This document shows positions 4,655 through 56,611 of a stretch of 64,000 nt of DNA, in pieces. The number at the start of each line of letters is the position of its first letter. Position 1 is the stretch's first letter. The stretch comes from Candidatus Dojkabacteria bacterium. GTDB lineage: Bacteria; Patescibacteriota; Dojkabacteria; SC72; JAHDCA01. Location: NCBI GenBank assembly GCA_030583845.1, contig CP129478.1, forward strand, positions 66,655 through 130,654. The letters run 5' to 3'. Under the pieces are notes generated by a model, which worked only from the letters and a program-made list of their open reading frames with translations, had not been told where the DNA came from and did no database searches. Made by a program: the position numbers and the translations under genes.

Positions 4655-4689
4655 GCCCGAATTTTGAAGTAAGATCTGTCCACTTGTAT

Positions 4690-4778
4690 ATCAAGTGGTC
4701 AGATGTTCCTTCAACTGGACCTCCCCGCTAACCTACCATTCGTAATTTTAGAGAAGAATGATAGGTTAGCGGGGGAGG
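4690..4778. repeat. two hairpins in the rsmH-ftsL spacer; the second is the CCCCGCTAACCTA variant of the interspersed inverted-repeat (IR) family
   Basis: A 7-bp stem CCACTTG/CAAGTGG lies at 4690-4708. A second hairpin has arms CCTCCCCGCTAACCTAC (4720-4736) and TAGGTTAGCGGGGGAGG (4762-4778), about 16 bp with one bulge. Confidence 0.7.
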
Positions 4779-4843
4779 CCTGGTTGGGTGGCTCACACAG
4801 CACACACATTTATAGTAGGGACGGGATCAATTTAATAACTGCC

Positions 4844-5319: not shown

Positions 5320-7095
5320 ATGGATAAGACGCCTGAGAAGATCTTTAGGCTGAACACCCGTGTTGTGTTTATATTTATCATTGTTTTTGGGTTTGCAGTC
5401 ATCCTCCAGATGGGCAGATGGCAGATTCTTGATCGTGAGAAATTTGAAGCGATGGCCAGCTCCCAATATTTGAGCACACAGAGACAGCCATCAGGCCGAG
5501 GCACCATCTTCGCAGCGGACGGAAGTATCTTAGCCACGGATAGACCTGCATGGGATGTGTATGCCTCGCTGAGCAGCATTGAAGAAGAAAGAGAGGCATT
5601 CTTTGCCGAAAAGGATAAATATGTGGAGAACGTATCGCAGGTGTTAGGCATTGATTCGAGTGAGCTAGACGAGAAGCTGACCGACGAATTCCGATATATC
5701 TCGATAGAGAAAGGTATAACCCCAGACGAGAAAAAATCATTAGAAGAGGCGCAAATATTTGAGGAAATGTCCCCTGGATTTGGGCTTTACTTTGAGAAGT
5801 CCGAAAAACGTTTCTATCCAAATGGATCGTTAGCTTCGCACGTCTTGGGCTACATGGGGAAGGATGCAAATGGTACCGATATTGGCCTCTACGGAATCGA
5901 AGGCTACTATTTCGGAGACCTGTTAGGCACCGAGGGCTACACATATGAAGAGCAGGATGCAAATGGCAATATTATCCTGACGGCTGAGTACGACCCAGTA
6001 CTACCTCGAGAAGGAAAGGATATCACCTTAACAATCATCCCTGGAATCCAGAAGAAAGTAGAGGACAAACTAAAGAAAGGTGTTGAAAACCACCAGGCAA
6101 AAAGCGGTAGCGCAATAGTGATGGATCCATCAACTGGGGCGATTATAGCAATGGCTAACTACCCAACTTACAATCCGAATGAGTATTGGAGACAGCAAGA
6201 GGCGTGGATCTTTAAAAATAAAGCCATCGCAGATGTTTACGAGCCAGGATCTATATTTAAGCCAATTACCGTAGCTATTGGCTTAGATACCAAAGCCATC
6301 GACGAGAACACTGTCTGCAATGATGAGAAAGGGTATATTACGATGTATGAAGGCACTCCAGATGAGGCGAAGATTTACACCTGGGACAGGAAGCCTGATG
6401 GCAAGATCACCCCCGCACAGTACCTACAGTTTTCAAACAATCCCTGCATTGCCACAACTGCCCTGGCTATCGGTCATGAGAAATATTTTCCCGCAGTTAA
6501 ACGGTTTGGGATAGGTGACTTTGTCGGACTAGGCCTACAGGATGAGACAAATAGCTACATCAGACCATACGAAGAATGGCTCGAGATCGACTTAGCCACC
6601 TCTTCTTTCGGCCAGGGAATCTCTGCAACCCCTATGCAGATGATCTCGGCACTTGCCTCACTTGCCAATGATGGGAAACGTATGCAGCCTCACATAGTAA
6701 AAGAGGTTGGCAATGGAGAAGAGGTTATACAGTTTACCCCTAGGGTAGTATCACAGACTGTGTCTGAAGAGAGCGCAAATAAGGTAGCACGTATGATGAC
6801 ATCGGTCGTTACAGGGGGTGATGCGAAATGGATATTTGATAAGTACTTAAGGGAGTATGACATCGCTGGGAAAACCGGAACAGCTCAGATCCCTAAGAAG
6901 GATACTGTGGGGTATTATGCAGACCGTACAAATACTACCTTTGTAGGATTTGCACCGGTCGACGATCCGAAAATGATCATGCTAATTAGACTTGAAGAGC
7001 CAAGTCTTGGTGAGCACTCGTCCGGTACAGCCGTGCCTGTATGGGTGGATACATTCCTAGCCATCGCTGACGACCTTGAGGTACCTAAGAAGTAG
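5320..7095 (+). CDS. ftsI: peptidoglycan D,D-transpeptidase (FtsI/PBP2-class penicillin-binding protein)
   Basis: N-terminal TM. SxxK (GSIFKP), SxN (FSNN) and KTG (AGKTGTA) motifs. The ATG at 5320 is preceded by GAGGT; the track start at 5263 is also possible. Confidence 0.85.
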   Translation: MDKTPEKIFRLNTRVVFIFIIVFGFAVILQMGRWQILDREKFEAMASSQYLSTQRQPSGRGTIFAADGSILATDRPAWDVYASLSSIEEEREAFFAEKDKYVENVSQVLGIDSSELDEKLTDEFRYISIEKGITPDEKKSLEEAQIFEEMSPGFGLYFEKSEKRFYPNGSLASHVLGYMGKDANGTDIGLYGIEGYYFGDLLGTEGYTYEEQDANGNIILTAEYDPVLPREGKDITLTIIPGIQKKVEDKLKKGVENHQAKSGSAIVMDPSTGAIIAMANYPTYNPNEYWRQQEAWIFKNKAIADVYEPGSIFKPITVAIGLDTKAIDENTVCNDEKGYITMYEGTPDEAKIYTWDRKPDGKITPAQYLQFSNNPCIATTALAIGHEKYFPAVKRFGIGDFVGLGLQDETNSYIRPYEEWLEIDLATSSFGQGISATPMQMISALASLANDGKRMQPHIVKEVGNGEEVIQFTPRVVSQTVSEESANKVARMMTSVVTGGDAKWIFDKYLREYDIAGKTGTAQIPKKDTVGYYADRTNTTFVGFAPVDDPKMIMLIRLEEPSLGEHSSGTAVPVWVDTFLAIADDLEVPKK

Positions 7096-9089: not shown

Positions 9090-9428
9090 CTATTGAGTGG
9101 AGTCTTTGGAATTTTCGATTATCTCCTCCCATGGCAAGTCCTCCAAAATGTCGTTTATCAATGGGAAAGTCTCTAATTGAGCCATAACAATGCTGGCGAC
9201 ATAGATTACAAATGCAAACACTATAGTGGCTCCAATTGCTGTAACCAGTCCTCTCATCAAGCTCACAGGGATCAGATATCGCCACCTGTAATCTCTACTC
9301 TTAATCTCGGTCAATTTCTGCACCGATCTGTCTAGCTGATTAATATCTAACTGTAGTGCCTCGATCTGGTTGCTGAGCTGCTCAATCTCTGTAGAATTGC
9401 TTTCCCTTTTCTGCTCTTTCTGTTCCAT
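9090..9428 (-). CDS. hypothetical coiled-coil / single-TM protein
   Basis: 112 aa. N-terminal coiled-coil (QLSNQIEALQLDINQL) and a C-terminal TM. Confidence 0.3.
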   Translation of the reverse strand: MEQKEQKRESNSTEIEQLSNQIEALQLDINQLDRSVQKLTEIKSRDYRWRYLIPVSLMRGLVTAIGATIVFAFVIYVASIVMAQLETFPLINDILEDLPWEEIIENSKDSTQ

Positions 9429-9498
9429 GGGTACAGTCTAGCATAACCAAACATGGACTTGTAGCTCAAATTTAAAGCTGCAACATGTATAATCAGTT

Positions 9499-10383
9499 AT
9501 GACCGACTCCCATACACACCTTACATCCGATGAGATCTACCCAGAGGTAGACAGTTTTGTAAATCGTTTCATAGAAGCGGGAGGCAGCGCGCTACTAAAT
9601 GTGGCTCACAACATTGAGAGCATTAATCAATCGCTTGAGCTGCATCGAAAATATCAGGGCGATCCTAGATTTAGCTACCGTACATCAATCGGGCTTCATC
9701 CAGATAACTTTTCTGCGAACTCGCTTTACGGCAAGACCTACTCGACACACGAAGCAATAAAACCATTGTTGAAGAACCTGGAGGGCACAATCACACAGAA
9801 CCTTGAAAGCATAAGTGCGATCGGCGAAACAGGATTGGACTACTACAGATTCCCATACGATGAAGGACTTACGGCTGAGCAGATAAGCACAACATACGAA
9901 GTGCAGAAAAGCGCTTTTCGTTGGCACTTGGAGCTGGCGGACAGATTCACAAAGCCGCTTACAATTCATACGCGGGAGTCAAAAGGGCAAACTGAATGCA
10001 TAACTGATGCAATCAAGCTGGTCTCAGAAGTAGGCGAGGGCAGGCTAACAGGATCATTCCATAGCTTCACAGGAGAAGTGAAGTTCGTAGAAGACATACT
10101 AAATCTCGGCTTCTATATCGGATTTAATGGGATTATCACATATAGCTCGGCTGACGATGTAAGGGAGATATTAAAAGAGGTGCCACTAGAGAGGGTACTG
10201 CTAGAAACCGATGCCCCATTCCTTCCACCGCGCTCTGTACGCAATAAGAAAAATGCTGCCATCAGACATGGACAGCCTTCCGATATCTTAGAAATCGCCG
10301 AGAAAGTTGCCGAGGTGAAATCTATCTCGATACAGGAAGTGCTAAGAGTCACTACAGAAAACTTTACAAAGCTATTTGGGTAA
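9499..10383 (+). CDS. TatD-family metal-dependent DNase/hydrolase
   Basis: N-terminal DSHTHL (HxH) motif and conserved TatD-like His/Asp/Glu positions. Length 294 aa. Confidence 0.7.
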   Translation: MTDSHTHLTSDEIYPEVDSFVNRFIEAGGSALLNVAHNIESINQSLELHRKYQGDPRFSYRTSIGLHPDNFSANSLYGKTYSTHEAIKPLLKNLEGTITQNLESISAIGETGLDYYRFPYDEGLTAEQISTTYEVQKSAFRWHLELADRFTKPLTIHTRESKGQTECITDAIKLVSEVGEGRLTGSFHSFTGEVKFVEDILNLGFYIGFNGIITYSSADDVREILKEVPLERVLLETDAPFLPPRSVRNKKNAAIRHGQPSDILEIAEKVAEVKSISIQEVLRVTTENFTKLFG

Positions 10384-11794: not shown

Positions 11795-11904
11795 AAGATC
11801 TGATTTGGATTTATTATTGACACTCGTCAGACAGAGTTATACTCTACCTTGCATATCCACCCGCTATAGGTTAGCGTGGTGACCATTAAATTTAGTAGTC
11901 CGCT

Positions 11905-13125
11905 ATGGAGCCGTTAGCATCTCGCATGCGCCCCAAAACATTAGACGAGTTTGTTGGCCAGCAACATCTGGTAGGTCCAAGCTCGCCGATCAGAAGATTT
12001 ATGGAGTCTGGGCAGCTGCCTTCAATGATATTTTGGGGACCACCTGGTACCGGCAAGACGACATTGGCATACATTATCTCGCAAAGCTTGCTATACGATT
12101 TTTACAAGATGCAGGCGGTAAGCAGTGGGAAGGCAAAGCTGATGAGCATCATCAAGATCGCCAGACAGAACCAGGATTACAATAAGAAAACCGTGCTTTT
12201 CCTAGACGAGATCCATAGATGGAACAAAGCGCAACAAGATACCCTGCTCCCGTATGTAGAGAAAGGGATTATCACCCTTATTGGAGCTACCACAGAGAAT
12301 CCCTCATTTACTATAAATAACGCCTTGCTCTCTAGGACAAAAGTATTTCTTTTCCACCCGCACACAGCGGAGGATATCGAGCTTCTACTCAAGCGAGCTG
12401 CGAAAGAGCTCAAGATCAAGATAAGAAAGCCGCTAATCGAGAGCATCGCAGATAGTGCAGATGGAGATATACGCAATGCTTACAACACACTTGAGATGGC
12501 CGAGATGCTCGCCCGCCAAGAGAGCCCATCTTCCATTAAAGGCACAGAAAACAAACAGCCTGAGATCACCAAGGAGCTTCTTGCCGCTGCAGTACAGAAG
12601 CAGCTGATGCACGACAGAGATGGAGAAGAACATTACAACATTATCTCTGCGATCCATAAATCTATGCGCTCGTCCGATCCAGATGCAGCGGTATATTGGA
12701 TAACAAGGATGCTAGTAGCAGGAGATGACCCGCTATATATTGCAAGAAGGTTGCTCCGCTTTGCGAGTGAAGATATCGGTAATGCCGACCCTCAAGCATT
12801 GATCTTGGCCAACTCTGTGTTTGAGGCATGCCAGAAGCTAGGTATGCCCGAGTGTGCTGTTCACCTCACACAGCTAGGTATCTACCTGGCTAACGCACCG
12901 AAAGACAACAGCGCATATGTTGCTTCTCAGCTGGCGACGGAAGATGTAAGGGTACATGGTAATCTTCCAGTGCCACTCCACATTCGCAATGCACCGACCA
13001 AACTCATGAAACAGCTCGGCTATAGCAAGGGGTATGTGTATGACCACGACGTCAAAGGGAAAAAGTCTGGTCAGCAATGCCTGCCTGACAAGCTGGTCGG
13101 CCGCAAGTATGTTAAGCCGAATTAA
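11905..13125 (+). CDS. rarA: replication-associated recombination protein A (RarA/MgsA AAA+ ATPase)
   Basis: Walker A GPPGTGKTT and Walker B LFLDEIHR. C-terminal MgsA domain. Confidence 0.9.
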   Translation: MEPLASRMRPKTLDEFVGQQHLVGPSSPIRRFMESGQLPSMIFWGPPGTGKTTLAYIISQSLLYDFYKMQAVSSGKAKLMSIIKIARQNQDYNKKTVLFLDEIHRWNKAQQDTLLPYVEKGIITLIGATTENPSFTINNALLSRTKVFLFHPHTAEDIELLLKRAAKELKIKIRKPLIESIADSADGDIRNAYNTLEMAEMLARQESPSSIKGTENKQPEITKELLAAAVQKQLMHDRDGEEHYNIISAIHKSMRSSDPDAAVYWITRMLVAGDDPLYIARRLLRFASEDIGNADPQALILANSVFEACQKLGMPECAVHLTQLGIYLANAPKDNSAYVASQLATEDVRVHGNLPVPLHIRNAPTKLMKQLGYSKGYVYDHDVKGKKSGQQCLPDKLVGRKYVKPN

Positions 13126-29091: not shown

Positions 29092-29139
29092 CCGCTAACT
29101 TATAGTCCGTCTCCGAGGCTTTGGACTATAAGTTAGCGG
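29092..29139. repeat. interspersed IR element, compact copy (17-bp perfect arms CCGCTAACTTATAGTCC, 14-nt loop)
   Basis: Arms at 29092-29108 and 29123-29139. Sits just upstream of the GGGTATAAT -10 element (29143-29151) of pheS. Confidence 0.85.
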
Positions 29140-30272: not shown

Positions 30273-32801
30273 ATGAAAATTTCATTAAACTGGATAAAAG
30301 AGCTCACACAGATAAACCTATTGACCGAAGAGTTTGTTGCACGCGTCCGAGCCCGAGTAGGTGAGGTCGAGGAGGTTATTGAGTATGACAAGAAGTACCA
30401 GAAGACTTTGCTTGCCCAGATCAAGGAGAAGCAGGAGCATCCAGAAGCCGACAAGCTGGCAATCTACAAGCTCGACATTGGGAGCGGCACAGATGTACAG
30501 GTAGTAGCTGGCGATAAAACGCTCGAAGTAGGTGACAAGGTCGCATATTTCCCACCGGAGACAGCGATCCCATACAACCCTAAGCCAGAGGAGCAAGGAA
30601 ACATCGTCAAGAAAGTGAAATTGCGAGGGATAGAGTCTAACGGTATGATCGCCTCTGCACGTGAGCTCGACATAAGCAACAACCACGAGCGGGTGATGCG
30701 GATGCACACAGATATGGCTCCAGGCACATCGATCAGCGAAGTGCTTGAGATGAATGATGTAGTCATTGATATCGAAAATAAGGCTCTAGCCAACCGTGCT
30801 GATTGCTTCGGGATCATTGGAATCGCTCGCGAAGCAGCGGGAATCCAAGGGCTAGAATTCAAATCGCCAGATTGGTATCTGGACCCGACAATTGAGCGAC
30901 CCGACACAGCTAGCAAAGAGGGTGGATTAGCTCTTAAAGTTGACAACCAGGCTGACAATCTCTGTCCACGCTATATGGCAGCAGTGATGTCAGGCATCCA
31001 GATAAAAGAATCGCCACTTTGGCTCCAGTCCAAGCTTGTAAAGTCGGGAGTACGCCCAATCAACAATATTGTCGACATCACCAACTACATCATGCTGCTT
31101 ACCGGGCAACCGCTTCATGCTTTCGACTACGACAAGCTGAAGGCAAAAGATACAAATGCCAAGGATAGCGCATATATAATTGTACGCCGTGCCAACACCG
31201 GTGAGGTTATCACAACACTCGACGGTAAGACTCATGAGCTCAACGACAGCAATGTAGTGATCTGCGATAGCTCCCACCCTGTGGCTATCGGAGGAGTAAT
31301 GGGCGGCCTCGATACTGAGATTGATGAAAACAGCAAGAACATCATTATCGAGTCAGCCAATTTCGAGAAGTCAAATATACGACGCACCTCGATGCAATTT
31401 GGACTGTTCTCTGAAGCTGTAACTAGATTTACCAAAGGCCAAGATCCGAATAAGTGCGAGAATGCTCTGTACCACGCCGTAAAGATGGTGGAAGAGCTGG
31501 CCAATGGCCAAGTTGCAGACAAGGTGCACGACATATATCAGCATCTCAGCGAGCCTCGACAGATCTCGGTCTCACTTGTGCGAGCTAACACGCATCTAGG
31601 TACAGAATTGAGCAGCGATGAGATCCACCAGATTTTAGAAAATGTTGAGCTACACAACCGAATGCTTGATGATGATCAGATGATTGTTGATATCCCGACA
31701 TACCGCAAAGATCTCCAGATCCCTGAAGATATCCACGAAGAGATCGGCCGACAGTACGGTTACGATAATATTCAAGTCACACTTCCAGGAAGGACATTGA
31801 TGCCGGCTGCTAAGAACCCAATCGTGGAGGTGCAGAAGTCAATTAGAAAGGCACTAACCGCAGCAGGGGCTGACGAGATCCTCACTTACAACTTCCGAGG
31901 CGCTGCTGATTTTGAGAACTTCAATCAGGATATTAAAAATGCATATCATATCAAGAATGCCCTATCGCCCGAGCTAGAGTATATGCGTACAAGCATCCTC
32001 CCATCAGTGTTAGAGAAGGTTAAGCTCAACTCCGTACGAGGCAAGTCGCACTTCGCGCTGTTCGAGATAAATAAATCCCATTCCAAGCTGAATGTAGACA
32101 AAGATGGCCTCCCGGTTGAGCAGCAGAGCGTTGCTTTTGGTATATCTATGGATGATAAGAGCGCCAAAGCTCAATACTCTGGATCGCCATACTATTTGGC
32201 CAAGCAGTATCTGGACGAGCTTATGCGAAGCCTAAATATCAATAGATACTCATATGAGCATCTAGCAGAGCTGCAGCTTGCCACATTGCCGTACTGGATC
32301 CAAAATCTTGTGCCACTTTTTAACAACAACGCTACAGCGATCGTGATAGCAGAGCGAGAAGGGGAGAAGAGCTATCTTGGAATTGTTGGCGATCTTAACC
32401 CAGTAGTGAAGAGTGATAACGGGCTAGCTCAGAACAGTGCAGGCTTCGAAATAGAGATAAAGGAGTTACAATACATAAATGATGGCGTGAGCAGCTATAG
32501 CGAGCCATCGAGATATCCTGCGGTCGTCGAGGATATCTGCTTCATAGTCGATAACTCAGTCCCAGCAGCCTATTTGCAGCAGGTAGGAGCAAAAGCCGTT
32601 GAGAGTAAAGAGCTTGTATCGAATGTATCGATTCTCGACATCTATCAGACAGATGAGCAGAAGAAGCAGGAGAAGAAGCAAGTCACGATCAGCATCATGC
32701 TTCAACATAAGGAGAAAACATTATCCGGGGAAGATGTATCAGCACTAGTGGGCAAAGTGTCCGATAAGGTCACCAAAGCAACTGGCGGGAAGGTAAAATA
32801 A
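30273..32801 (+). CDS. pheT: phenylalanine--tRNA ligase beta subunit
   Basis: 842 aa. N-terminal tRNA-binding domain, B3/B4 and B5 domains and a C-terminal FDX-ACB domain. Immediately downstream of pheS. Confidence 0.9.
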   Translation: MKISLNWIKELTQINLLTEEFVARVRARVGEVEEVIEYDKKYQKTLLAQIKEKQEHPEADKLAIYKLDIGSGTDVQVVAGDKTLEVGDKVAYFPPETAIPYNPKPEEQGNIVKKVKLRGIESNGMIASARELDISNNHERVMRMHTDMAPGTSISEVLEMNDVVIDIENKALANRADCFGIIGIAREAAGIQGLEFKSPDWYLDPTIERPDTASKEGGLALKVDNQADNLCPRYMAAVMSGIQIKESPLWLQSKLVKSGVRPINNIVDITNYIMLLTGQPLHAFDYDKLKAKDTNAKDSAYIIVRRANTGEVITTLDGKTHELNDSNVVICDSSHPVAIGGVMGGLDTEIDENSKNIIIESANFEKSNIRRTSMQFGLFSEAVTRFTKGQDPNKCENALYHAVKMVEELANGQVADKVHDIYQHLSEPRQISVSLVRANTHLGTELSSDEIHQILENVELHNRMLDDDQMIVDIPTYRKDLQIPEDIHEEIGRQYGYDNIQVTLPGRTLMPAAKNPIVEVQKSIRKALTAAGADEILTYNFRGAADFENFNQDIKNAYHIKNALSPELEYMRTSILPSVLEKVKLNSVRGKSHFALFEINKSHSKLNVDKDGLPVEQQSVAFGISMDDKSAKAQYSGSPYYLAKQYLDELMRSLNINRYSYEHLAELQLATLPYWIQNLVPLFNNNATAIVIAEREGEKSYLGIVGDLNPVVKSDNGLAQNSAGFEIEIKELQYINDGVSSYSEPSRYPAVVEDICFIVDNSVPAAYLQQVGAKAVESKELVSNVSILDIYQTDEQKKQEKKQVTISIMLQHKEKTLSGEDVSALVGKVSDKVTKATGGKVK

Positions 32802-32922
32802 CTAGTCCCGCTAACTTATAGTATGGTTTCAGGAATCATAACAATGATCAATCGCTTGTAGCTGATGAAAAAACAACATATGATCGGAGCATATACACGC
32901 TATAAGTTAGCGGGACTAGTTA
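32799..32922. repeat. interspersed IR element, MITE-like copy (23-bp terminal inverted repeats TAACTAGTCCCGCTAACTTATAG flanking a 78-bp core)
   Basis: Left arm at 32799-32821 and right arm at 32900-32922. The TAA stop of pheT and the TAG stop of the convergent PBP1A gene both lie inside the terminal repeats. Confidence 0.85.
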
Positions 32923-35900
32923 ACCCTTATAGTAATCTCTGAAACAATAATCGTAGTACCGCTGACAGAGCGAGCAGTTACAGTATACTCCCCATCTCCA
33001 GCGCCAATATCGTTCCAGTTAACGCTCCAACCACCGTTAGAGCTGTTGTCAGTATAGGTTCTTGTGTAATCAACATCTACCCCCTGAATTACAAATGTCA
33101 CACTCAACGGTGTGAAGCCAGAGGCTGTAACCTCTAAGGCATGAGGTATCGAGATAGTCTGATTGTTGGTTGGGGTGACCCAGTTCAACGATCCAGCATT
33201 GCCTGTGACAGTCACATTGATGCTAGTTGTACCTATTCGACCTGCGCTATCTACAGCACGTGCTGTGACTAGCATATTTCCAGCTACCCGGCCCGATGGT
33301 ACTGTGTACCTCAGCTGATATGGTGAGCTATCGTCTTCAATATCTACAGGTGAGCCATCGATCAGAAGCTCTACATAGTTTAGCGACCCTGTGAATCGGA
33401 CGTCTACATCAACCACGAGCTGCTCGCCAGCATCGATTGATGAGCCGGTGGCAGGAGAAGTGATTGTTGGGACAGGCTCGCCATTTGGACCTAGCGGTAG
33501 GTCACAGTTTGCTGACTCAGGCTGATTGAATACGAACATTCTTCGTCCATCGGTCTCAAGGTTGTCAAAGAATGCAGCAATAGTGCCCAGCTGTGCTCCG
33601 TTTTCTGGTGTGAAATTCAACCAGGTCTTGTCTTCTAGTATGTCGGGGAACTGTGAGGCTTGGTTGTAGTTTGATGCTATCTTGCCGTTTGAGCGGCATA
33701 TATGAGCAGTTTCCCGTTTATCCTCTCCAGGCTTGCGGGAATTCACATAAACTGTTTTCTCCTTCGAACAAGGAGTACTGTCGGAAGCCAGCCTTCCGGT
33801 ATCTCTACACACCTGGCCCTCGCTGACATTGGCCGGGCGTGAGTATAACTGTGAGGGATACTTACTTGAGACCCTCTCCATAAATGAGTGAGCAATAGGC
33901 AATGGCACAGTAGTGCTCCATGCACCAGGAACTTCTTCACCGTTGTTATTGCCGGCCCATACGCCGACTACCAGATTTTTATGATACTGCATAGATACAA
34001 GGTCCTTTGGACCGTTGGTTGTACCGGTCTTACCACAGATTGCTGGCTTACCACCGATATTATAGTAATACTGTGGTGCGCTACGCATGATCTGATCGCT
34101 GTGTGCACCAAGATCGCATAATGTCCAGTTCAATAGGTAGATATCCTCTTCCGAGAAGATTCTTTCACTCTTTTCCTCATACTCCTTTAACACCTCACCC
34201 TTTGAGTTTTCGACTTTTAGAAACGGCGTCACATCGCGCTTAATACCACCGGTGGCAAATATAGAGTATGCACCGGCATGCTCAAGAAGCGACATCTCAG
34301 CAGTTCCCAATGTGAAGCTAAGGCCATAGTTGCTTGGATCTCCGAGAGTTGTGATACCCATCTTCTCCATGTTAGCCATGACATTTTCCAGCCCGACAGC
34401 TTGCAATGTGTAAACCGCCGGTCGGTTTCTTGATTTCACAAGTGCTTCACGAGCAGTCATGATTCCCAAGGTCTTGGTATCCCAGTTTGGTGGGTTATAG
34501 TTACCGAAGCTCATCTCTGCAATGTCAGGGGCGGACATCCATGGGCCCCATCGCTGGAAAGCAGTAAAGTATGTGTATGACTTTACCGAAGAGCCTTGCT
34601 GCCTCAGAGCAGTTGTAACATTTACATTTCCGTCGATCCTCGGATCATCGGTGATTGTCGGGTCGACCGAGCCGACCATGGCAAGTATCTGGCCGGTGTT
34701 TGGGTCAATCGCGACCAATGCACCGTTGTAGACGCCCCATTTATTTCCATACTGCTTTATACCGTTCCTGATCTCCTCTTCGGCGACAATCTGGGTCGAC
34801 ATATCAAGTGTAGTTGTAACTTTCAGTCCTCCACGAGTTAGCATCTCATGGCCGAATTCCTGCTCGAGCTGCTGCTGTACATAGAATACGAAATGATAAG
34901 CTGGAATATCGTTGGTCAAAGTCTTGTAAACGATCTCTTCTTCAGCAGCTGCCTGGAGCTCTTCCTCGGATACTCCGGTCAGCTTCTTATGCTTCGACAT
35001 CTGATCGAGTACATATGCCTGTCTTACCTTTGCGCCTTCCTGCTCAACACCATAGATTGGTGCATAGTAGGTAGGGCTCTGGATCATCCCTGCGAGCATT
35101 GCGCTTTCAGCAAGTGTAAGATCACGGATATCCTTGCCGAAGTAGGCCTTCGAGGCAGACTGGAAGCCATAGTTTACGCTTCCCATAAACACCTCGTTCA
35201 TGTAAAGCTGGAGGATTTCATCTTTTGTGAATGTCTGCTCAACCTGCATGGTCAGTAGCATCTCTTTAAGCTTTCGCCTTGCAGCTTTTAGGAAATTGCT
35301 TCTCTCATAACACTCATCTCCGAATGCTTCATAACAGAGCGTGTTTCTTACCAACTGCTGGGAGATCGTGCTAGCACCACACACATCACCCGAGCCGGTG
35401 AGATACGATCTAGTGCTTTTAATACCACAACTTGTTATACCCTTCCAGTCGAGACCCTTATGCTCGTAGAATTCCACATCCTCAGCGGCAAGCAGTGCCC
35501 ATTTTGTGTGCTCTGGAATATCCTCCAGATCAACAAACTCGCGATTTTCTTCGGAGTAAACCTTAAAGAGCTCTTTCTTGCCGGTTCTATCATAAATTAT
35601 CGTGCTTCCGGCTACATCTCTCTCAATCAGCTTATCCGGATCAGGTAGCGATTGCTGCAGACCTTTCAAATATATGCCTAAAGCTATAAATGCAATTGCG
35701 GTTGTGACAAACGCAAATCCAAACATATATGCAAACAGCCTCTTGAAAAATAGCTTTCTATTCTTGGCTCCTGCTGATGGGCGTCCGCTACTTTTCGGCT
35801 TCTTGCCCACAAATCCGTTCCAAAGCTGGCCAATATTGGTCATGCTATTAAAGCGCCTCATGGTGGAGCGACCACTGGTGCGGCTTGCTGAGTGGCTGAT

Positions 35901-36050
35901 ATTTCCTGGCGATTTGTAGTTATGGGCGGATGAACGCTTATGCGCGGCGACAGAAGAGGCCCGAATCCTTCTCGGTGATGGCCTTCTCATGCGTCTACTT
36001 GCGTGTGCGCCAGTTGGGTTGTGGTCTGTAAATCCCATGTTGTATTTCAT
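32916..36050 (-). CDS. bifunctional class-A penicillin-binding protein (PBP1A-type glycosyltransferase/transpeptidase) with C-terminal Ig-like domains
   Basis: GT51 motif AAEDVEFYEHKGLD. Transpeptidase KTG motif (CGKTGTT). Arg-rich N-terminal tail and TM. About 300 aa of C-terminal beta-rich Ig-like repeats. Confidence 0.85.
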   Translation of the reverse strand: MKYNMGFTDHNPTGAHASRRMRRPSPRRIRASSVAAHKRSSAHNYKSPGNISHSASRTSGRSTMRRFNSMTNIGQLWNGFVGKKPKSSGRPSAGAKNRKLFFKRLFAYMFGFAFVTTAIAFIALGIYLKGLQQSLPDPDKLIERDVAGSTIIYDRTGKKELFKVYSEENREFVDLEDIPEHTKWALLAAEDVEFYEHKGLDWKGITSCGIKSTRSYLTGSGDVCGASTISQQLVRNTLCYEAFGDECYERSNFLKAARRKLKEMLLTMQVEQTFTKDEILQLYMNEVFMGSVNYGFQSASKAYFGKDIRDLTLAESAMLAGMIQSPTYYAPIYGVEQEGAKVRQAYVLDQMSKHKKLTGVSEEELQAAAEEEIVYKTLTNDIPAYHFVFYVQQQLEQEFGHEMLTRGGLKVTTTLDMSTQIVAEEEIRNGIKQYGNKWGVYNGALVAIDPNTGQILAMVGSVDPTITDDPRIDGNVNVTTALRQQGSSVKSYTYFTAFQRWGPWMSAPDIAEMSFGNYNPPNWDTKTLGIMTAREALVKSRNRPAVYTLQAVGLENVMANMEKMGITTLGDPSNYGLSFTLGTAEMSLLEHAGAYSIFATGGIKRDVTPFLKVENSKGEVLKEYEEKSERIFSEEDIYLLNWTLCDLGAHSDQIMRSAPQYYYNIGGKPAICGKTGTTNGPKDLVSMQYHKNLVVGVWAGNNNGEEVPGAWSTTVPLPIAHSFMERVSSKYPSQLYSRPANVSEGQVCRDTGRLASDSTPCSKEKTVYVNSRKPGEDKRETAHICRSNGKIASNYNQASQFPDILEDKTWLNFTPENGAQLGTIAAFFDNLETDGRRMFVFNQPESANCDLPLGPNGEPVPTITSPATGSSIDAGEQLVVDVDVRFTGSLNYVELLIDGSPVDIEDDSSPYQLRYTVPSGRVAGNMLVTARAVDSAGRIGTTSINVTVTGNAGSLNWVTPTNNQTISIPHALEVTASGFTPLSVTFVIQGVDVDYTRTYTDNSSNGGWSVNWNDIGAGDGEYTVTARSVSGTTIIVSEITIRVN

Positions 36051-36087
36051 CGTGTATGATTATACGCAACATTAAATGAATAGTCAC

Positions 36088-36151
36088 TCCGACAACCTAA
36101 CGTTTAAAAATAGTTGCGAGCAAATTGTTTTTAAGCGTTAGGTTGTCGGAG
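36088..36151. repeat. 24-bp inverted repeat (1 mismatch) forming a strong hairpin
   Basis: CTCCGACAACCTAACGTTTAAAAA ... TTTTTAAGCGTTAGGTTGTCGGAG. It overlaps the stop of the 36138-36908 gene and lies upstream of a TATAAT element (minus strand) before PBP1A. Confidence 0.7.
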
Positions 36152-36921: not shown

Positions 36922-37069
36922 CCGCTAACTTATAGAACACAACATATTAACCCTAGAAGCCGCAAATATAGCCCAAACTTTCCATTTCATGAAAATATAA
37001 TTAAATAATATGCTAAAATCGTTAATTCCCAGCTAAATATTTAATCTTCAGCGCATTATAAGTTAGCGG
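36922..37069. repeat. interspersed IR element (13-bp arms CCGCTAACTTATA flanking a 122-bp AT-rich core)
   Basis: Arms at 36922-36934 and 37057-37069. The element spans the divergent promoter region, and its right arm abuts the ATG of the M16 peptidase gene (37071). Confidence 0.8.
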
Positions 37070-38855: not shown

Positions 38856-38960
38856 TCACCCGACCACTTAGCGTCGATAAAAAAACAATCGGATCAACAC
38901 AGCAAGCTCGAGAGATGGCTAACACAGCTTTTCCTATCTATCGGAGCTAAGTGGTCGGGT
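38856..38960. repeat. 16-bp perfect inverted repeat pair (CACCCGACCACTTAGC / GCTAAGTGGTCGGGTG) with a 73-bp spacer, upstream of hisS
   Basis: Arms at 38856-38871 and 38945-38960. A related AGTGGTCGGG core also occurs at 19604-19615. Confidence 0.7.
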
Positions 38961-38976
38961 GATATACTAAACCAAT

Positions 38977-44149: not shown

Positions 44150-45364
44150 ATGTATTTATCACAGAAATTACAACAAGAGAGAGAATTTAAAGGTCTAACT
44201 CAAAGAGAGCTTGCCGACTTATCTGGGGTAAATTACTCAACAATTACCAAGCTTGAGAGCGGTGTGTATCAAAATCCTACTCTCGATACCATTATGAAAA
44301 TAAGTAGCGCCCTTGAGATAAAGATTGAAAGTCTCTTACAACCGCGGAAAGAATTTGGAATGCCTTCTAACACAATGATTGAATCCCACGCTGAAGTCAA
44401 AGGTGTAAAATTTACCTTTATTGACCTCTTCGCAGGTATTGGAGGAATTAGAATTGCCTTTGAGAGGCAAGGCGGGCGCTCTTTGTTTTCTTCTGAAATT
44501 GATAAGTATGCGGTTAAAACCTACCAAGCTAACTACGGTGAGACGCCTGCTGGCGATATTACCCAAATTGATGCCACAAATATACCTGATCACGATATTT
44601 TACTAGCAGGATTTCCATGCCAACCTTTTTCAATCGCTGGAGTTTCAAAAAGGCAGAGTTTGGGCAGGGGTCACGGTTTCTTTGATGAAACAAAGGGAAC
44701 ATTATTTTTCGACATCGCAAGAATTATTGAAGTGAAGAGGCCTAAAATCGTGTTTCTCGAAAATGTGAAGAACCTTATGTCACATGATAAAGGAAGGACT
44801 TTCGAAGTAATAATCAACACACTAAAAGAGCTTGATTACATACCATACTATAAAGTTAATGACGGACAGCATTTTGTCCCACAGCACAGGGAAAGAACAA
44901 TTATTGTAGCTTTTGATAATAAAGTATTTAAAGGCAAAGAGAATTTTGAATTTCCAGAGCTACCTAAAAAAGAAGTGAGGCTCTCAGATATTCTTGAAAA
45001 AGAGGTTGACCCTAAATATACACTTACTGATAAACTGTGGGAGTATCTTCAAAACTATGCGAAAAAACATAAAGAAAAGGGTAATGGATTTGGTTATGGG
45101 CTTGCTGATTTTAATGGAATCACTAGAACCTTAAGTGCTAGGTATTACAAAGATGGATCAGAGATTCTTATCCCTCAGGAAGGTAAAAACCCAAGAAGGC
45201 TTACCCCAAGAGAATGTGCAAGACTTCAAGGTTTCCCTGAGGATTTCATAATTCCTGTTTCCGATACACAAGCATATAAGCAGTTCGGAAATGCTGTAGT
45301 TGTTCCTTTAATGGAGTACTTAGCTAATTCAGTTGTTAAATCATTAGGATATGTTAGAAAATAA
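44150..45364 (+). CDS. DNA (cytosine-5)-methyltransferase with an N-terminal XRE-type HTH regulatory domain (M.EcoRII/M.SsoII-like)
   Basis: N-terminal HTH ([23 protein letters not shown]). C5-MTase motifs [50 protein letters not shown] and [10 protein letters not shown]. Confidence 0.9.
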
Positions 45365-46529
45365 TTTTGCAGGTCAGGCAATTGAGGCTGTTAAAAGAGG
45401 TTCTGTAGCTTTCTCGAAATTTATAACTTCAAACGATGCTGGAGTAACTGGAGGTCATCAAAGTGGATTCCATCTACATAAGAACTCATACCCTCTTTTT
45501 TTTGAGACTCAAGGAGTCAAAGGTGAAAATAGTGAAAAATTTGCAAAGATAAAATGGCAGGGAGATTTTGAAACAGACAGCAGGTTTATCTACTATGGGG
45601 TCGGTACAAGAGATGAATACAGACTTACAAGGTTCGGCAAAGGATTTCCGTTTTTAACAGAGGAAAGCGTTGGAAACCTTCTTATTCTTACTAAACAGAC
45701 AGATGAGTACTACGAGGCGTTTGTACTTTCAAGTGATGATGAGATAGAAACCTTCTTCAGTGCATTCGGCATAAGTCCACAGGAAACAAATAAAATCATT
45801 CCTAAAACAAATACTGTAAGTGTTGAAGATCAGCTTATGAAGATGTTTGAGGCTTACATAGGTACTATCAGCGTTGATTTCCCTCTTACAACCGAGATTG
45901 CAGATAATGCTAGGAAAATAATTATGCAGGTTTCTGGAATATCTACAATTGATGTCAAATCTAATCCAGATAAGGAGCTTTTGAGATGGCTTGATACAGA
46001 GTATAAGTTATTTAAAACTATTGAGAATAATAGATATTCAAACATCATAGGGCAACCTTTTAAGGATGTAGATTCTTTCATACAAACAGCGAACAGCATT
46101 TTAAATAGAAGAAAAAGTAGAGCTGGAAAGTCACTTGAGCATCACCTTTCAAATATGTTTACAACTTTTGATTTGAAATTCAGTGAGCAGACTGTAACAG
46201 AAGAGCACAAAAAGCCTGATTTCATCTTCCCAAGCCCGGAAGCATATCACAATTTTTTATTTGATCAGAATAAGCTTGTTTTTCTTGCAGCGAAAACAAC
46301 ATGCAAAGACAGATGGAGACAGATCTTGAATGAAGCTGACAGAATCAAAGTAAAACATTTATTTACATTACAGCAGGGAATATCTTCCAATCAGATGAAA
46401 GAAATGACGCGCTACAATGTTAAACTTGTTGTTCCAAAAGAATATATAAACACTTATCCTAAGGAGTACAGAGAAGGAATTTATTCGCTTGGTCAGTTTG
46501 TAAGATACGTCGATGCAACTCAAAAATAG
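45351..46529 (+). CDS. EcoRII-family type IIE restriction endonuclease (likely CCWGG-type specificity)
   Basis: Overlaps the MTase end by 14 nt. The N-terminal effector domain ([18 protein letters not shown]) resembles the EcoRII-N B3-like domain. C-terminal catalytic-domain signatures [42 protein letters not shown] and HLFTLQQG match my recollection of EcoRII; this comparison is from memory and was not aligned. Confidence 0.7.
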
Positions 46530-52887: not shown

Positions 52888-55514
52888 TCAAACCTCCTCT
52901 TCAACTCCACCAGCTTATTCAGCGCCTCCACCGGCGTCATCCCATCTAGATCCAGCCCTTTCAACTCATTAATAAGCTCCGACTCCTGCGCAGAGAAGAA
53001 TGATAATTGATCAATGCTAGCTGCTTTGCTCGATTTCCCCTTAGTCGCTGCTGCTATCTGCTCATCATCAGACTCGCCCTTGCCATTTGATAGAGTAGAG
53101 AGGATCTCATTCGCTCGCGTTACCACCTCCTCAGGCAATCCAGCCAGCTGCGCTACATAGATGCCGTAGCTCCGATCAGTACCACCCTCGACGATCTTCC
53201 GCATGAAAGTTACTTCGCCTTTCTCCTCATCCTCGCTCACCATCACATTGTAGTTGCGGACAAATTCAGGGTGCTCGGCTGCCAGCTTCAGCAGCTCGTG
53301 ATAATGGGTAGCAAACAGTGTGCGAGCCTTGACTCGACTCACAAGATACTCGGAGAGAGCCCATGCAATGCTTACACCATCGTAGGTGCTTGTACCTCGA
53401 CCCACCTCATCCAGTATCACCAGGCTGTTTTCGGTCGCATTATTCAATATATTTGCCGCTTCCTCCATCTCCACCATAAATGTGCTCCGTCCCTGGCTCA
53501 GATTGTCTGAAGCACCTACTCGTGAGAACACACGATCGACCAGCGAGATCTCAGCATCATTTGCTGGCACGAATGAGCCGATCTGCGCCATCAAGACGAT
53601 AAGTGCGATCTGACGGATATAGGTTGATTTACCCGACATATTGGGGCCGGTGATGATGGCCATGCGATTGCCCATGATTGTCACATCGACATCGTTTGAT
53701 ACAAACTCATCATCTGAGATCTTCTCGACTACAGGGTGGCGGCCACCTGCTATCTTTAAAACTCCGTCGCGCACACCAAAATCATGCATGATAGGCTTGA
53801 TGTAAAGATTTGACCGCGCAATATTTGCAAACCCGGCCAGGACATCAAGCTTGCCAGTCTCATGAGATAGCTGCTTGATCGCTGTGAGGTAGGGGAGCAG
53901 CTCTTCCCGCAGCTCTTGGAAGATATTGTACTCGAGCTTGAAAAGCCTCTCCTCAGCGCCAAGGATCACCTCTTCTTTCTTCTTCAGCTCATCGGTAATG
54001 AAGCGCTCGCAATTTACCAAAGTCTGCTTGCGGATATAGTAGCCGGGGACTTTATCAATATGCGCATTAGTGACTTCTATGTAGTAGCCAAAAACCTTGT
54101 TGAATCCGATCTTGAGCGATGGGATGCCGGTCTTCGCTTTCTCGACCTCAACCATCTCTTGGACCCACTCGTTTTTCTGGCCTGAGTTGCTGCTGCCAGC
54201 CAGTGATCTTAATTCATCTACCTCTGGGCTGTAACCGGCTTTGACAATTCCACCCTCACTTATCGTAGTAGGTGGTGAATCCGAGATTGTAGAGTCAAGG
54301 CGGGTGATCAGGCTATTTATTGGGAGTTTTTCGTCGGAGAAGAGCTGGGCGAATTTAAATTTCTCAAGCAGCTCGCTATGCTCTGCTAATCTATCAGATA
54401 TTTGCAGCATATTTTGCAATGAAAGCTGCAACCCTTTCAAGTCGCGCGCTGAGGCTCTGTTTAGACCGACTTTGCCGACAATTCGCTCTGTGTCGCTTAC
54501 TTCAGATAGAAGCTTGCGGATTTCATTAAGTAGCTCAAAGTCATTGTGAAAATACTCGACAACTTCATGCCTTTCATTAATTTCATGAAGATTAAGCAGC
54601 GGATTAATTACCCAAGAGTAGAGCATACGCCTGCCCATGACAGTACGAGTGTCATCGAGCACCTCAAGCAGTGTGTCGTGAGATTGCCCAGTGTAGGAGT
54701 TCTGCACCAGGTCGAGGTTGCGGATTGTCGCTCGATCAAGAACCATCGTGCCCTGAGTCGAGAAGTATTGCGGTCTGCTGATATGCTCTGGGTTCATTTT
54801 CTGCGTATCCAAGATATAGCTGATAAGCATGGAAGCAGCTCTGGCCGCTAACTTATAGTCCGCTATAAAAAGCGAATCCAAGCTTTTCGCTTTATAGAAT
54901 TCTTTGAGCGTCTTCTCAGCGGCGGCTGGCTTGCTCTCTGCAGCGCTGATAAGCTGCACAGGGATTTCATTAAATTTTAATGAAGTCTCGGAGTCCGGAA
55001 GCAAAATCTCTACAGGGTCGTGCGCCGCAATTAATGAATTTAATGAATCCCGACTCAGCGGAATCTCAGTAATCTTAAATTCACCAGTTGAGAGATCTGC
55101 AAATGCAACGCCGATCTTTTCCTTATCCTGCACGACAGCCATCACATATGGATTTTTGCGCGAATCGGCCAGATCGCCATCAAGCGTACCTGGCGTGACT
55201 ACTCGAGTGACACCTCTTTTAACTACTCCCTTGGCCAGCTTAGGATCCTCAAGCTGATCAACAACAACAGCGCTGTGGCCTGATTTGATGATCTTGGGCA
55301 GATATTGATCAAGCGCATGGTGTGGGAAACCGGCAAGTGGGGTAGGGTCGGTAGCTTTGTCGCGGGTAGTTAATGTGATATTTAATACTTTAGAGGCCAG
55401 CTTGGCATCATCGCCAAATGTCTCATAGAAATCACCCATCCGAAACAGCACAATCTTGTCAGGATATTGCCTCTTGACGCCTAAATATTGTTCCATCATG
55501 GGGGTCTTTTTCAT
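52884..55514 (-). CDS. mutS: DNA mismatch repair protein MutS
   Basis: N-terminal mismatch-binding domain (MEQYLGVKRQYPDKIVLFRMGDFYETFGDDA). Walker A GPNMSGKST and an ABC signature. Length 876 aa. Confidence 0.9.
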   Translation of the reverse strand: MKKTPMMEQYLGVKRQYPDKIVLFRMGDFYETFGDDAKLASKVLNITLTTRDKATDPTPLAGFPHHALDQYLPKIIKSGHSAVVVDQLEDPKLAKGVVKRGVTRVVTPGTLDGDLADSRKNPYVMAVVQDKEKIGVAFADLSTGEFKITEIPLSRDSLNSLIAAHDPVEILLPDSETSLKFNEIPVQLISAAESKPAAAEKTLKEFYKAKSLDSLFIADYKLAARAASMLISYILDTQKMNPEHISRPQYFSTQGTMVLDRATIRNLDLVQNSYTGQSHDTLLEVLDDTRTVMGRRMLYSWVINPLLNLHEINERHEVVEYFHNDFELLNEIRKLLSEVSDTERIVGKVGLNRASARDLKGLQLSLQNMLQISDRLAEHSELLEKFKFAQLFSDEKLPINSLITRLDSTISDSPPTTISEGGIVKAGYSPEVDELRSLAGSSNSGQKNEWVQEMVEVEKAKTGIPSLKIGFNKVFGYYIEVTNAHIDKVPGYYIRKQTLVNCERFITDELKKKEEVILGAEERLFKLEYNIFQELREELLPYLTAIKQLSHETGKLDVLAGFANIARSNLYIKPIMHDFGVRDGVLKIAGGRHPVVEKISDDEFVSNDVDVTIMGNRMAIITGPNMSGKSTYIRQIALIVLMAQIGSFVPANDAEISLVDRVFSRVGASDNLSQGRSTFMVEMEEAANILNNATENSLVILDEVGRGTSTYDGVSIAWALSEYLVSRVKARTLFATHYHELLKLAAEHPEFVRNYNVMVSEDEEKGEVTFMRKIVEGGTDRSYGIYVAQLAGLPEEVVTRANEILSTLSNGKGESDDEQIAAATKGKSSKAASIDQLSFFSAQESELINELKGLDLDGMTPVEALNKLVELKRRFE
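54845..54861. repeat. solo copy of the 17-mer CCGCTAACTTATAGTCC inside the mutS coding sequence
   Basis: Identical to the left arm at 29092-29108. On the minus strand it encodes DYKLAA within MutS. No inverted partner is found nearby. Confidence 0.6.
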
Positions 55515-55516
55515 GT

Positions 55517-55936
55517 TTGGAGTATAACATATGGGCTGCCGCAGTGGCTTCGTTGGGGTACACGGATGTAATTATTTGCACACAAGAGTATGCCTCATCT
55601 AAAATTACAAGTGGGGCAAGAAGCTATCGTGATAATCAAGGGAAGTATGGTTTCTATCCAGAGCATGAAGATGATGTCTACTCGTATGCAGTTACAGCAT
55701 TTGAGCTGATACTCGGAAGGCTACCTATGAATCTGGATCCTGACTCAGATAGATTTGAAGTCATGATGCACTATCAAAATGCCGAAGCGCGGCTATCTGT
55801 AATTGATAGGCTTGGGTTGAGCCCGGCAGTAGCTAGTCGTGTTCGTGAAGTATTCATGCGAGCGTTTGAGAATTTTGGATATTCATCGGCTGGCGCATTT
55901 CTTCAAGACTTCAAGCTGGCATATTCCCACAACTAG
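55517..55936 (+). pseudogene. Ser/Thr protein-kinase C-lobe fragment (N-lobe and catalytic loop missing)
   Basis: DDVYSYAVTAFELILGRLP and the downstream helices match kinase subdomains IX-XI. No Gly-loop, HRD or DFG motifs are present, and the ORF starts 3 nt from the divergent mutS start. Confidence 0.4.
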
Positions 55937-55971
55937 ACTGAACGTTTATGAGCCGTAGACTGTTTACAGCT

Positions 55972-56538
55972 CTACGATAGACCAAACAGCGGATCACCAG
56001 AGTAATCCTTTTTGAGATTTCCCTCCAACTGTTCCAGATCCAGACGATTAGGATAGAACAATCTTGCGACTCTAGCTCCTTTTGGTACGAAATTGATGCC
56101 TACGTCCATGACATTATGCTGCGGCACTATACCTTTGTAATCAGTACCCTTAAGAGCAAGTCCAAATTGATCTCTTTCATACACAACCTGTATTTGTGTG
56201 AGCTCGTCAAGAGCCTCAACTACAACTACTTTGTAGATGTCATACGGGTAAAAGTATAAACGGCATTCCTGCATACTCGGCGTATCGTGTTCGCCCCTGA
56301 ATAGGGTAAGCTCTGTGTGCTGATTACCGCCCGCCTCCATAGTAGCCATCTGTAATCCCCAATCGTCTGCTATATGTAACTCATTCTCTCGAGTCACCAG
56401 AGACTCACCATTGTAGATCAGAATTTCTGTGTATACGATTGTTGCCATATTTACTCCTCTGCGCAATTGATTAATTCTACGTTTAGAGCACGACCATATT
56501 ATACTATGGGTTCTGCAACAATTCCATGACAAAAACAA
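55972..56538 (-). CDS. hypothetical protein
   Basis: 188-aa ORF. The likely start is at the internal Met (MATIVYTEILIYNG..., near 56449). Confidence 0.3.
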   Translation of the reverse strand: MFLSWNCCRTHSIIWSCSKRRINQLRRGVNMATIVYTEILIYNGESLVTRENELHIADDWGLQMATMEAGGNQHTELTLFRGEHDTPSMQECRLYFYPYDIYKVVVVEALDELTQIQVVYERDQFGLALKGTDYKGIVPQHNVMDVGINFVPKGARVARLFYPNRLDLEQLEGNLKKDYSGDPLFGLS

Positions 56539-56611
56539 CCTTTTACGGCATTAATTTTACTCCAATCTTTGATGACCACACTTTGGACAACCACTCTAAC
56601 AAAGTCGAAGC

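Follow-up and report, generated by a model that had tools for sequence, protein, structure and literature searches.

The question raised by this locus is how a perfect inverted repeat came to fill the entire space between two convergent genes of a Candidatus Dojkabacteria bacterium, and what it may do there. The locus lies within a stretch of 64,000 nucleotides (nt) of contig CP129478.1, which was analysed as a whole and is called the window in the following. At 32799-32922 an inverted repeat with a total length of 124 nt separates pheT (30273..32801, plus strand; domains B3_4, B5, tRNA_synthFbeta, FDX-ACB and tRNA_bind) from a gene for a class A penicillin-binding protein (PBP; 32916..36050, minus strand; domains Transgly, Transpeptidase and Big_7). 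We consider it likely that this element is one copy of a lineage-specific, non-coding and hairpin-forming repeat family, similar to repetitive extragenic palindromic (REP) sequences and miniature inverted-repeat transposable elements (MITEs), which was inserted into a short convergent spacer.

The two arms of the element comprise 23 nt each, are 100% complementary and enclose 78 nt. The left arm (32799..32821, plus strand) reads TAACTAGTCCCGCTAACTTATAG and holds the pheT TAA together with the family core CCGCTAACTTATAG (32808-32821); the right arm (32900..32922) reads TAACTAGTCCCGCTAACTTATAG on the minus strand and holds the PBP TAG (complement of 32916-32918). In 100 dinucleotide shuffles of the window the arm was not matched at ≤3 mismatches. 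An initial annotation of this DNA had described the 124-bp repeat with its perfect 23-bp arms, which was confirmed, and had stated that the element fills the convergent spacer, which holds as well: the stops of pheT and PBP are 114 nt apart, and all 114 nt lie inside the element. The further statement that the arms begin exactly with both stop codons is correct for pheT, whose TAA (32799-32801) represents nt 1-3 of the left arm, but not for PBP, whose TAG comes after TAAC, at nt 5-7 of the minus-strand reading of the right arm (TAAC-TAG). The last two PBP codons and the stop (GTT AAC TAG) fall within this arm. That the element carries its own stops was borne out, since each arm TAACTAGTCCCGCTAACTTATAG, read inward, closes all three reading frames with TAA at nt 1, TAG at nt 5 and TAG at nt 21. 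The long hairpin, also postulated before, is predicted by RNA folding of the region for both strands, with -49.2 kcal/mol (z -7.5) for the plus strand and -50.6 kcal/mol (z -7.2) for the minus strand. The stem of this copy runs past the core with the copy-specific sequence TAACTAGT, and its 3' flank reads UUAACCCUUAUAG on the pheT strand, which contains no U-tract, and UUAUUUUACCUU on the PBP strand. The interior (32822..32899) is in part self-paired and unique; it belongs to no Rfam family, and its sole open reading frame (ORF) comprises 12 codons without a Shine-Dalgarno (SD) sequence. At the gathering threshold Rfam yielded nothing in the whole window, in which no tRNA or tmRNA genes were found either, and a permissive Rfam scan of the element returned only sub-threshold look-alikes of miRNA precursors, i.e., generic hairpins. 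DNA from other samples, assembled independently, contains the same sequence (Logan SRR24881069; DRR779145, 3 single-nucleotide polymorphisms in 20 kb), and the element is therefore not an assembly artefact. What the initial annotation had overlooked is the membership of the arms in a repeat family, which we regard as the main fact about this locus.

Three further spacers of the window contain the arm core CCGCTAACYTATAG in the form of inverted pairs of identical polarity, and it is found once inside mutS. The inner 14 nt of the arms, CCGCTAACTTATAG, were found eight times in the window at ≤2 mismatches (0.42 expected) and the 8-mer CCGCTAAC nine times (0.78 expected), and four inverted pairs were counted, all with one polarity, compared to 0.05 in shuffled windows. 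All pairs have CCGC outermost and TATAG innermost. The arm consensus of the family is (AGT)CCCGCTAACYTATAG(YGYG), conserved over ~14-22 nt around a variable centre of 10-120 nt; the arms comprise 14-23 nt and are 92-100% complementary. Altogether ~10 copies are distributed over the 64 kb (about one per 7 kb), eight of them paired and one in coding DNA. The outer ends of the pairs are located 0-85 nt from the stop of the upstream ORF, and the long distances contain a complete small hairpin.

The sister copies occupy quite different positions. One of them (4723..4774, plus strand), with the variant core CCGCTAACCTA, is located between rsmH/mraW and an ftsL-like ORF, and its outer stem CCTCC/GGAGG probably includes the SD sequence of this downstream ORF (TTG at 4784). 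Another (29092..29139, plus strand) is a short hairpin with its 14-mers 20 nt apart, situated downstream of the canonical rplT terminator and ahead of the pheS promoter. A separate small hairpin at 4670-4700 (CCACTTG-tatat-CAAGTGG) was observed between the rsmH stop and the 4723 hairpin; it parallels the rplT terminator before the 29092 copy, and the repeats seem to land just 3' of an existing 3' hairpin. The pair at 36922..37069 (plus strand) spans a whole divergent spacer, the distance from arm to start codon being 13 nt on one side and 1 nt on the other. TATAAG in its right arm stands 8 nt before the ATG of an M16 peptidase gene; in L002, the nearest other genome (see below), TATAAT is found 9 nt before. 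The intragenic copy in mutS (54845..54874, minus strand) is composed of an exact 14-mer (54845-54858) and a degenerate partner arm (54863-54874) and reads CGCTTTTTATAG-CGGA-CTATAAGTTAGCGG on the minus strand, with the arms 4 nt apart (TCCG on the plus strand). Its 14-mer falls in the codons for DYKLAA within the variable loop FIADYKLAARA (codons ~214-224). In addition, a solo degenerate copy (11864..11877, minus strand; ACGCTAACCTATAG, two mismatches) lies 27 nt upstream of an MgsA-like gene. A possible diverged member is the inverted repeat at 38856..38962 (plus strand) in the trpR-like/hisS spacer, with arms TCACCCGACCACTTAGCG... of 24 nt that are 92% complementary and enclose a centre of 59 nt. 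Ten of 15 positions of these arms (CCCGACCACTTAGCG) agree with the family core, and the outer end abuts the -10 box of hisS. The same spacer of L002 holds a canonical family pair; by alignment of the two spacers, 38856-38962 may be a diverged member or an unrelated repeat. No further copy was detected in the left extension of the window (L107/L108, 9.7 kb).

The relatives available for comparison were the lineage L002/L111 (Logan SRR28525167), whose PheT and MutS are 72% and 79% identical to those of the window, as well as L003, L105 and L106, with 65, 54 and 52% identity in pheT. L002 shows full synteny with the window over more than 20 kb. The pheT/PBP spacer, 114 nt long in the window, comprises 49 nt in L002, without the repeat, and 17 nt in L106. 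Copies of the family turn over between these genomes. The core is present in L002 in three pairs within ~37 kb and one solo copy, the pairs there being confined to spacers as are the four in the 64 kb of the window, and rplT-pheS is the only site common to both genomes. The other copies of L002 are situated in the thrS-infC spacer, which measures 20 nt in the window, in the trpR-like/hisS spacer, where the gene ends with the TAA contained in CCGC-TAA-C, and before a methyltransferase gene, at a distance of 9 nt from its ATG. Sites that differ between the window and L002 are pheT-PBP, the divergent spacer, thrS-infC and the methyltransferase. The family motif is absent from L003, L105 and L106. 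At rplT-pheS the canonical terminator of rplT and the start of pheS are common to all four genomes compared, and an extra hairpin of 50-65 nt is found in the window and L002 only; the site is empty in L105 and L106. In the thrS-infC alignment the site is filled in L002 alone and otherwise empty. Because the core is a dispersed repeat, the spacers of the relatives lack it and the sister sites occur in filled and empty states, the comparison supports the view that the element is a discrete insertion rather than a spacer that arose in situ.

The initial annotation had proposed such an insertion together with the capture of stop codons, and comparison of the 3' ends with those of relatives lacking the element upholds the first part only. 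The C-terminal motif ...TGGxxK of the pheT product is common to all three alignable proteins, the lengths in the window and L002 are identical, and the TAA therefore lies at the ancestral stop position. After the conserved ...ITxRV the PBP proteins end with N* in the window, GG* in L002 and DPTSPN* in L003 (KVDPTSPN*), the tail in the window being the shortest by 1-5 residues. Judging from these alignments, pheT captured no new stop, and only the PBP tail differs. Deletion of 32804-32917 would leave ...AAA TAA CTA GTT AAC..., with both frames and stops intact and abutting; this reconstruction is possible because the palindromic ACTAGT is found at both ends of the element. Among the ten convergent gene pairs of the window four overlap at their 3' ends by 4-14 nt (994-997, 7085-7095, 10372-10383 and 13112-13125) and three more are ≤22 nt apart, all seven without a hairpin. 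A near-zero ancestral pheT/PBP spacer is therefore normal for this genome.

Sequences with the same arms were also found in ribosomal RNA. A metagenome scan for short-loop pairs gave 13 matches, of which only L018 (JGI) and L022 (NCBI LSQX01) were informative. These two contigs are 99.6% identical, derive from two metagenomes and carry a 16S-tRNA-tRNA-23S operon according to Rfam. Hairpin insertions are located in L018 at 422-487, 1635-1690, 2314-2377 and 4079-4142, and likewise in L022, corresponding to helix h44 of the 16S rRNA and helices H25, H45 and H98 of the 23S rRNA. The insertion in h44 comprises 53 nt compared to 6 in the Rfam model, that in H25 46 nt and that in H98 63 nt compared to 4 in the model; the H45 insertion stands directly before GGUAGGGGAGCG. 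The helix next after H45 is also extended in L018 (35 nt instead of 8), by sequence without the motif. All four hairpins are oriented in the rRNA sense, sit at helix tips and share the ends GUC-CCGCUAAC-UUAUAG ... CUACAG-GUUAGCGG-GAUG, and their U-G wobbles pair in the sense strand only. Over 18-20 nt they are identical to arms of the window (AGTCCCGCTAACTTATAG, TCCCGCTAACTTATAGCGTG, ACTAGTCCCGCTAA). Two of these helices, H25 and H45, are the classical places of intervening sequences (IVSs), which RNase III excises in other bacteria. A survey of rRNA genes in the Candidate Phyla Radiation (CPR) described many short non-intron insertions at H25 and H45, suggested that they are IVSs and drew no tie to genomic repeats (Tsurumaki et al., 2024, PMC11270868); in L018 and L022 the stems extended at these positions have the arms of the window family. 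The window element differs from IVSs in its location between protein genes instead of in rRNA. In the literature searched, no IVS family was found to be described as a dispersed intergenic repeat as well.

Beyond these operons two further matches are of interest. In L012 (Dojkabacteria Bin_334, GTDB) two convergent genes enclose a copy of the asymmetric type, in which the TAG of the 14-mer is the stop of the left ORF. In the 16S rRNA of a member of the Saccharibacteria (L010 6056-6096) a full 14-mer pair (CCGCTAACTTATAGCGCG...CTATAAGTTAGCGG) forms helix 6 with a loop of 23 nt compared to 2, which may represent the same family in another CPR phylum or a coincidence. The scan of genome contigs for short-loop pairs returned nine matches, most of them unrelated chance hairpins from Actinobacteria, Paenibacillus and others. 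Among viral contigs 79 single matches to the 14-mer and no pairs were found; the motif is therefore not phage-borne.

All family members fold into long hairpins (z -4.6 to -9.6) in which the core forms the base of the stem, and the stems often run past the core with copy-specific sequence, such as CCTCC/GGAGG at 4723. Covariation was evaluated in an alignment of 12 members with 29 nt per arm, in which the loops were replaced by a tetraloop. Of the 168 cells formed by the 14 core pairs, only 4 are unpaired. One core position that often varies is occupied by U-A (4), C-G (3) or U-G (5) and never by C-A, and in three copies (H45, H98 and 4723) both partners of a pair have changed in a compensatory way. 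The score for covariation was 0.314, compared to 0.190 after shuffling (0/500) and ≤0.139 with the partners slid against each other. On this evidence the pairing is maintained within the family, a pattern which both selection at the RNA level and a palindrome-symmetrising process at the DNA level would fit.

Taken as a dispersed insertion, the element would have the following history. The family would have spread by copy-and-insert through the spacers of one subclade of Candidatus Dojkabacteria (CPR/Patescibacteria), and one copy would have landed in the very short convergent pheT/PBP spacer. The pheT stop would have remained unmoved, and the PBP tail would have been trimmed by one to few codons, now ending in the arm. 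The transcript of pheT or of PBP would end in, or run through, the perfect 23-bp stem. Most likely, the effects are passive ones: ribosomes arriving from either gene encounter a stop within 23 nt, and both mRNAs gain this stem at or near their 3' ends. The hairpin RNA of Correia elements is a substrate of RNase III. By analogy, the stem at pheT/PBP could stabilise the 3' ends of both mRNAs or be cut by RNase III rather than act as a classical intrinsic terminator; cutting of the hairpin RNA by this enzyme was also proposed for the QMITEs of Coxiella (PMC5896051). Moreover, the inner half of the arm reads TATAAG in the outward direction. It is speculation that the arms double as weak outward promoters, which at pheT/PBP would give antisense transcripts.

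Several observations weigh against such an insertion history. The 78-nt interior has no second copy in the ~1 Mb of DNA searched, and the centres of the four window pairs (~14, 20, 78 and 120 nt) are unrelated to each other in sequence and length. No target-site duplication (TSD) is shared by the members; TA or ACTAGT at the pheT/PBP copy belongs to the palindrome and is hence ambiguous as a duplication. The mutS loop with the repeat has the same length as in eight homologues, which a simple insertion does not explain, and an in-frame insertion of this copy was rejected on these grounds. At rplT-pheS 28 of 28 core bases are identical between the window and L002, with pheT at 72% identity and a different loop, which would fit selection or concerted evolution better than a neutral relic. 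The sole closer strain that was available is near-identical and also has the element, and it therefore offers no presence/absence polymorphism at pheT/PBP. Furthermore, it is from sequence identity that we infer the rRNA hairpins and the window family to be the same by descent.

The mode of mobilisation has to be counted among these points as well. No transposase or integrase is encoded in the window. The only Y1/RAYT-like gene that was found belongs to the L002 lineage (L111 9388..9981, 197 amino acids) and is located between a PPDK-like gene and mutS. It matches Y1_Tnp of Pfam with 44.9 bits, and its only NCBIfam match, a REP-associated tyrosine transposase (RAYT), reaches 32 bits, which is below the cut-off. 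The gene is flanked (9351-9981) by two unrelated hairpins with 14-bp stems and not by the motif, the second of them overlapping its stop just before the -10 box of mutS, and none of its 120 best homologues derives from the genome of the window. At the corresponding position the window has unrelated DNA of ~1.1 kb (55515-56611) with two ORFs without Pfam match. The L111 gene showed no connection to the family and resembles an IS200-type unit equipped with end hairpins of its own.

The features of the family agree with known classes of repeats only in part. It resembles REP/REPIN/BIME elements, and likewise the 'TIR repeat' families linked to transposases of the Y1 type (RAYT/TIRYT), in being short, non-coding, palindromic, dispersed and often arranged in inverted pairs that form a larger hairpin. 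As in REPs, which are concentrated between convergent and unidirectional ORFs at ≤20 bp from their 3' ends, extragenic copies are located near the 3' ends of ORFs, terminal TAG stops occur, a repair gene (mutS) has an intragenic copy and a TSD is missing. According to Di Nocera et al. (2013, PMC3733652), conv-REPs are located at <20 bp from both ORF ends, TAG stops are provided by REP termini, and genes for DNA repair often contain intragenic REPs in other bacteria. In contrast to REPs, whose unit of 20-40 bp is an imperfect palindrome, the single arm is not itself palindromic (fold -0.5 kcal/mol), and a palindrome exists only between arms 14-120 nt apart; the centres are long and variable, copies occur in rRNA, and the family resides in the ~1-Mb genome of a CPR bacterium. 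Concerning the GTAG/CGTC tag of REPs, the arms end here with ATAG (GTAG in the rRNA copies), which is inner and base-paired. The lack of a Y1 gene in the window and of the motif beside the Y1_Tnp gene of the L002 lineage distinguishes the family from RAYT-mobilised REPs. With bacterial MITEs (Correia/NEMIS of Neisseria, RUP/SPRITE of S. pneumoniae, QMITE1/2) the family shares terminal inverted repeats, a length of 100-150 bp and the position at gene 3' ends: SPRITE and REP are found preferentially where the ends of genes converge (PMC3184786), and QMITE1/2 of Coxiella overlap the 3' ends of genes by 1-50 bp (PMC5896051). The ends of bacterial MITEs, with -10-like boxes able to drive outward transcription, may be likened to the family arms. 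Unlike MITEs, the family has no TSD and no uniform interior, and no parent insertion sequence with the same ends was seen in the window. It can be filed neither as REP nor as MITE because the arm is not self-palindromic, no RAYT gene is flanked by it, and TSDs and a common interior are missing. Rickettsia palindromic elements (RPEs) are comparable as palindromic repeats tolerated in spacers and genes of a reduced genome; they add 30-50 in-frame codons, whereas the mutS copy adds none, and there is no sequence relationship.

The rRNA copies also raise the possibility, which we consider rather unlikely, that the hairpin is a shared RNA module, the same stem building the insertions in h44, H25, H45 and H98 and punctuating mRNAs at gene boundaries. 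Were this the case, either a dedicated processing or binding factor would act on rRNA and mRNA, or a mobile hairpin spread over the genome, with a master form under selection as RNA, would have seeded the IVSs and expansion segments of bacterial rRNA. Such a selected master hairpin would explain the asymmetric GUC...GAUG end and the wobbles that pair in the sense strand only. Doubtful to a somewhat greater degree is the explanation that the conserved stem is a sequence-specific RNA or DNA signal under selection, by which a nuclease or binding protein punctuates operons and excises or marks rRNA insertions; the copies would then be functional sites and not selfish passengers. The identity of the core in both arms at the orthologous rplT-pheS site in spite of a differing loop would be expected, and so would a core that is common to an mRNA context and four rRNA helices, including the two that are classical sites of RNase III-excised IVSs. 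The end and wobbles shared by the four rRNA copies point in the same direction, as does the location of copies exactly at gene boundaries, with one SD sequence in an outer stem. However, the two closest genomes disagree at five of the six sites, and the relatives manage without the motif at the same junctions. RNase III has no specific sequence need, no candidate for a partner protein was identified, and positions after a complete terminator, between convergent genes and inside mutS follow no common functional logic.

In the initial annotation the hairpin had been regarded as a possible bidirectional terminator. The corresponding explanation, i.e., a terminator which evolved at pheT/PBP and resembles the other hairpins through convergent use of a favoured stem, is improbable in our view. 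It is in line with a very stable hairpin on both strands between convergent genes, as in Rho-independent bidirectional terminators, and with the partial U-run on one side, UUAUUUUACCUU after the stem on the PBP strand. Nevertheless, the loop comprises 78 nt instead of the usual 3-8, the pheT side has no U-tract, and a consensus scan called the rplT terminator (stem 12 bp, loop 5, T-run) but not the pheT/PBP hairpin. The stem is moreover repeated at non-terminator positions, one sister copy following a complete terminator, another occupying a divergent promoter spacer and a third lying within mutS, and most convergent junctions in the window do without any hairpin. An exact identity of 14-23 nt among copies is not expected from convergence, and orthologous junctions with a spacer of 0-50 nt are already seen at 72% and 52% identity. 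The claim was therefore not upheld.

The weakest alternative, a DNA-level motif accumulating by drive (a DNA uptake sequence (DUS) or protein-binding site) with secondary pairs like the DUS pairs in terminators of Neisseria, would agree with a lineage-specific motif, with pairs at gene ends and with a mutS copy that arose without an indel in a variable loop, but is most improbable given a density of ~1 per 7 kb with ~10 copies in 64 kb, one of them coding and eight in pairs of a single polarity (DUS and uptake signal sequences occur about once per kb, mostly singly and in coding DNA), filled sites that are true insertions of 50-120 nt, and the presence of the motif in rRNA helices with RNA-type wobble pairs.

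Two specific candidates were rejected. A T-box, attenuator or L20-mimic upstream of pheS does not agree with the occurrence of the same hairpin at unrelated junctions and its absence from L105 and L106. An integron attC site was dismissed since CGCTAAC/GTTAGCG differs from RYYYAAC/GTTRRRY at two positions per side, the element is flanked by housekeeping genes whose order is conserved in four genomes, and the window encodes no integrase.

Some additional features of the window were recorded. The spacer inverted repeat at 36087-36151 has arms of 29 nt that are 90% complementary and a loop of 7 nt, and overlaps the stop of an ORF of 256 amino acids. Many gene starts in the window lack an SD sequence and have, at only 5-9 nt from the ATG, a preceding TATAAT-like box (often TGnTATAcT), for example those at 9499, 24567, 36050(-), 38489, 38977, 42081(-), 43950(-) and 55514(-), which suggests that leaderless mRNAs may be widespread in this Dojkabacteria genome. 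Upstream of hisS the box and its spacing are conserved in three genomes (TGATATAC-TTAAACCAWT-ATG). At 44150-46529 the window contains a restriction-modification pair of the EcoRII type, composed of a C-5 cytosine methylase fused to a helix-turn-helix domain and a following endonuclease with the N- and C-terminal EcoRII domains, which has no counterpart in the compared stretch of the L002/L111 contig.

The overlap with stop codons is known behaviour of REPs and MITEs, and a palindromic repeat that supplies stops between convergent genes will not surprise a specialist; the novel part is the link to rRNA. For annotation it is relevant that the repeats shape the PBP tail, the start of the M16 peptidase gene, with a -10 box in the arm, and the SD sequence of the ftsL-like ORF. 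CPR bacteria are usually held to be poor in mobile DNA. A repeat family that fits the definition of neither REP nor MITE in a CPR genome of ~1 Mb is therefore noteworthy, as is the presence of the same arms in H98, in 16S h44 and at the classical 23S IVS sites of an uncultured bacterium. The origin of rRNA IVSs has long been ascribed to mobile DNA, and their source population was never identified. A family that resides in both intergenic spacers and rRNA helix tips would make the mobile-DNA origin of IVSs testable with existing metagenomes and metatranscriptomes.

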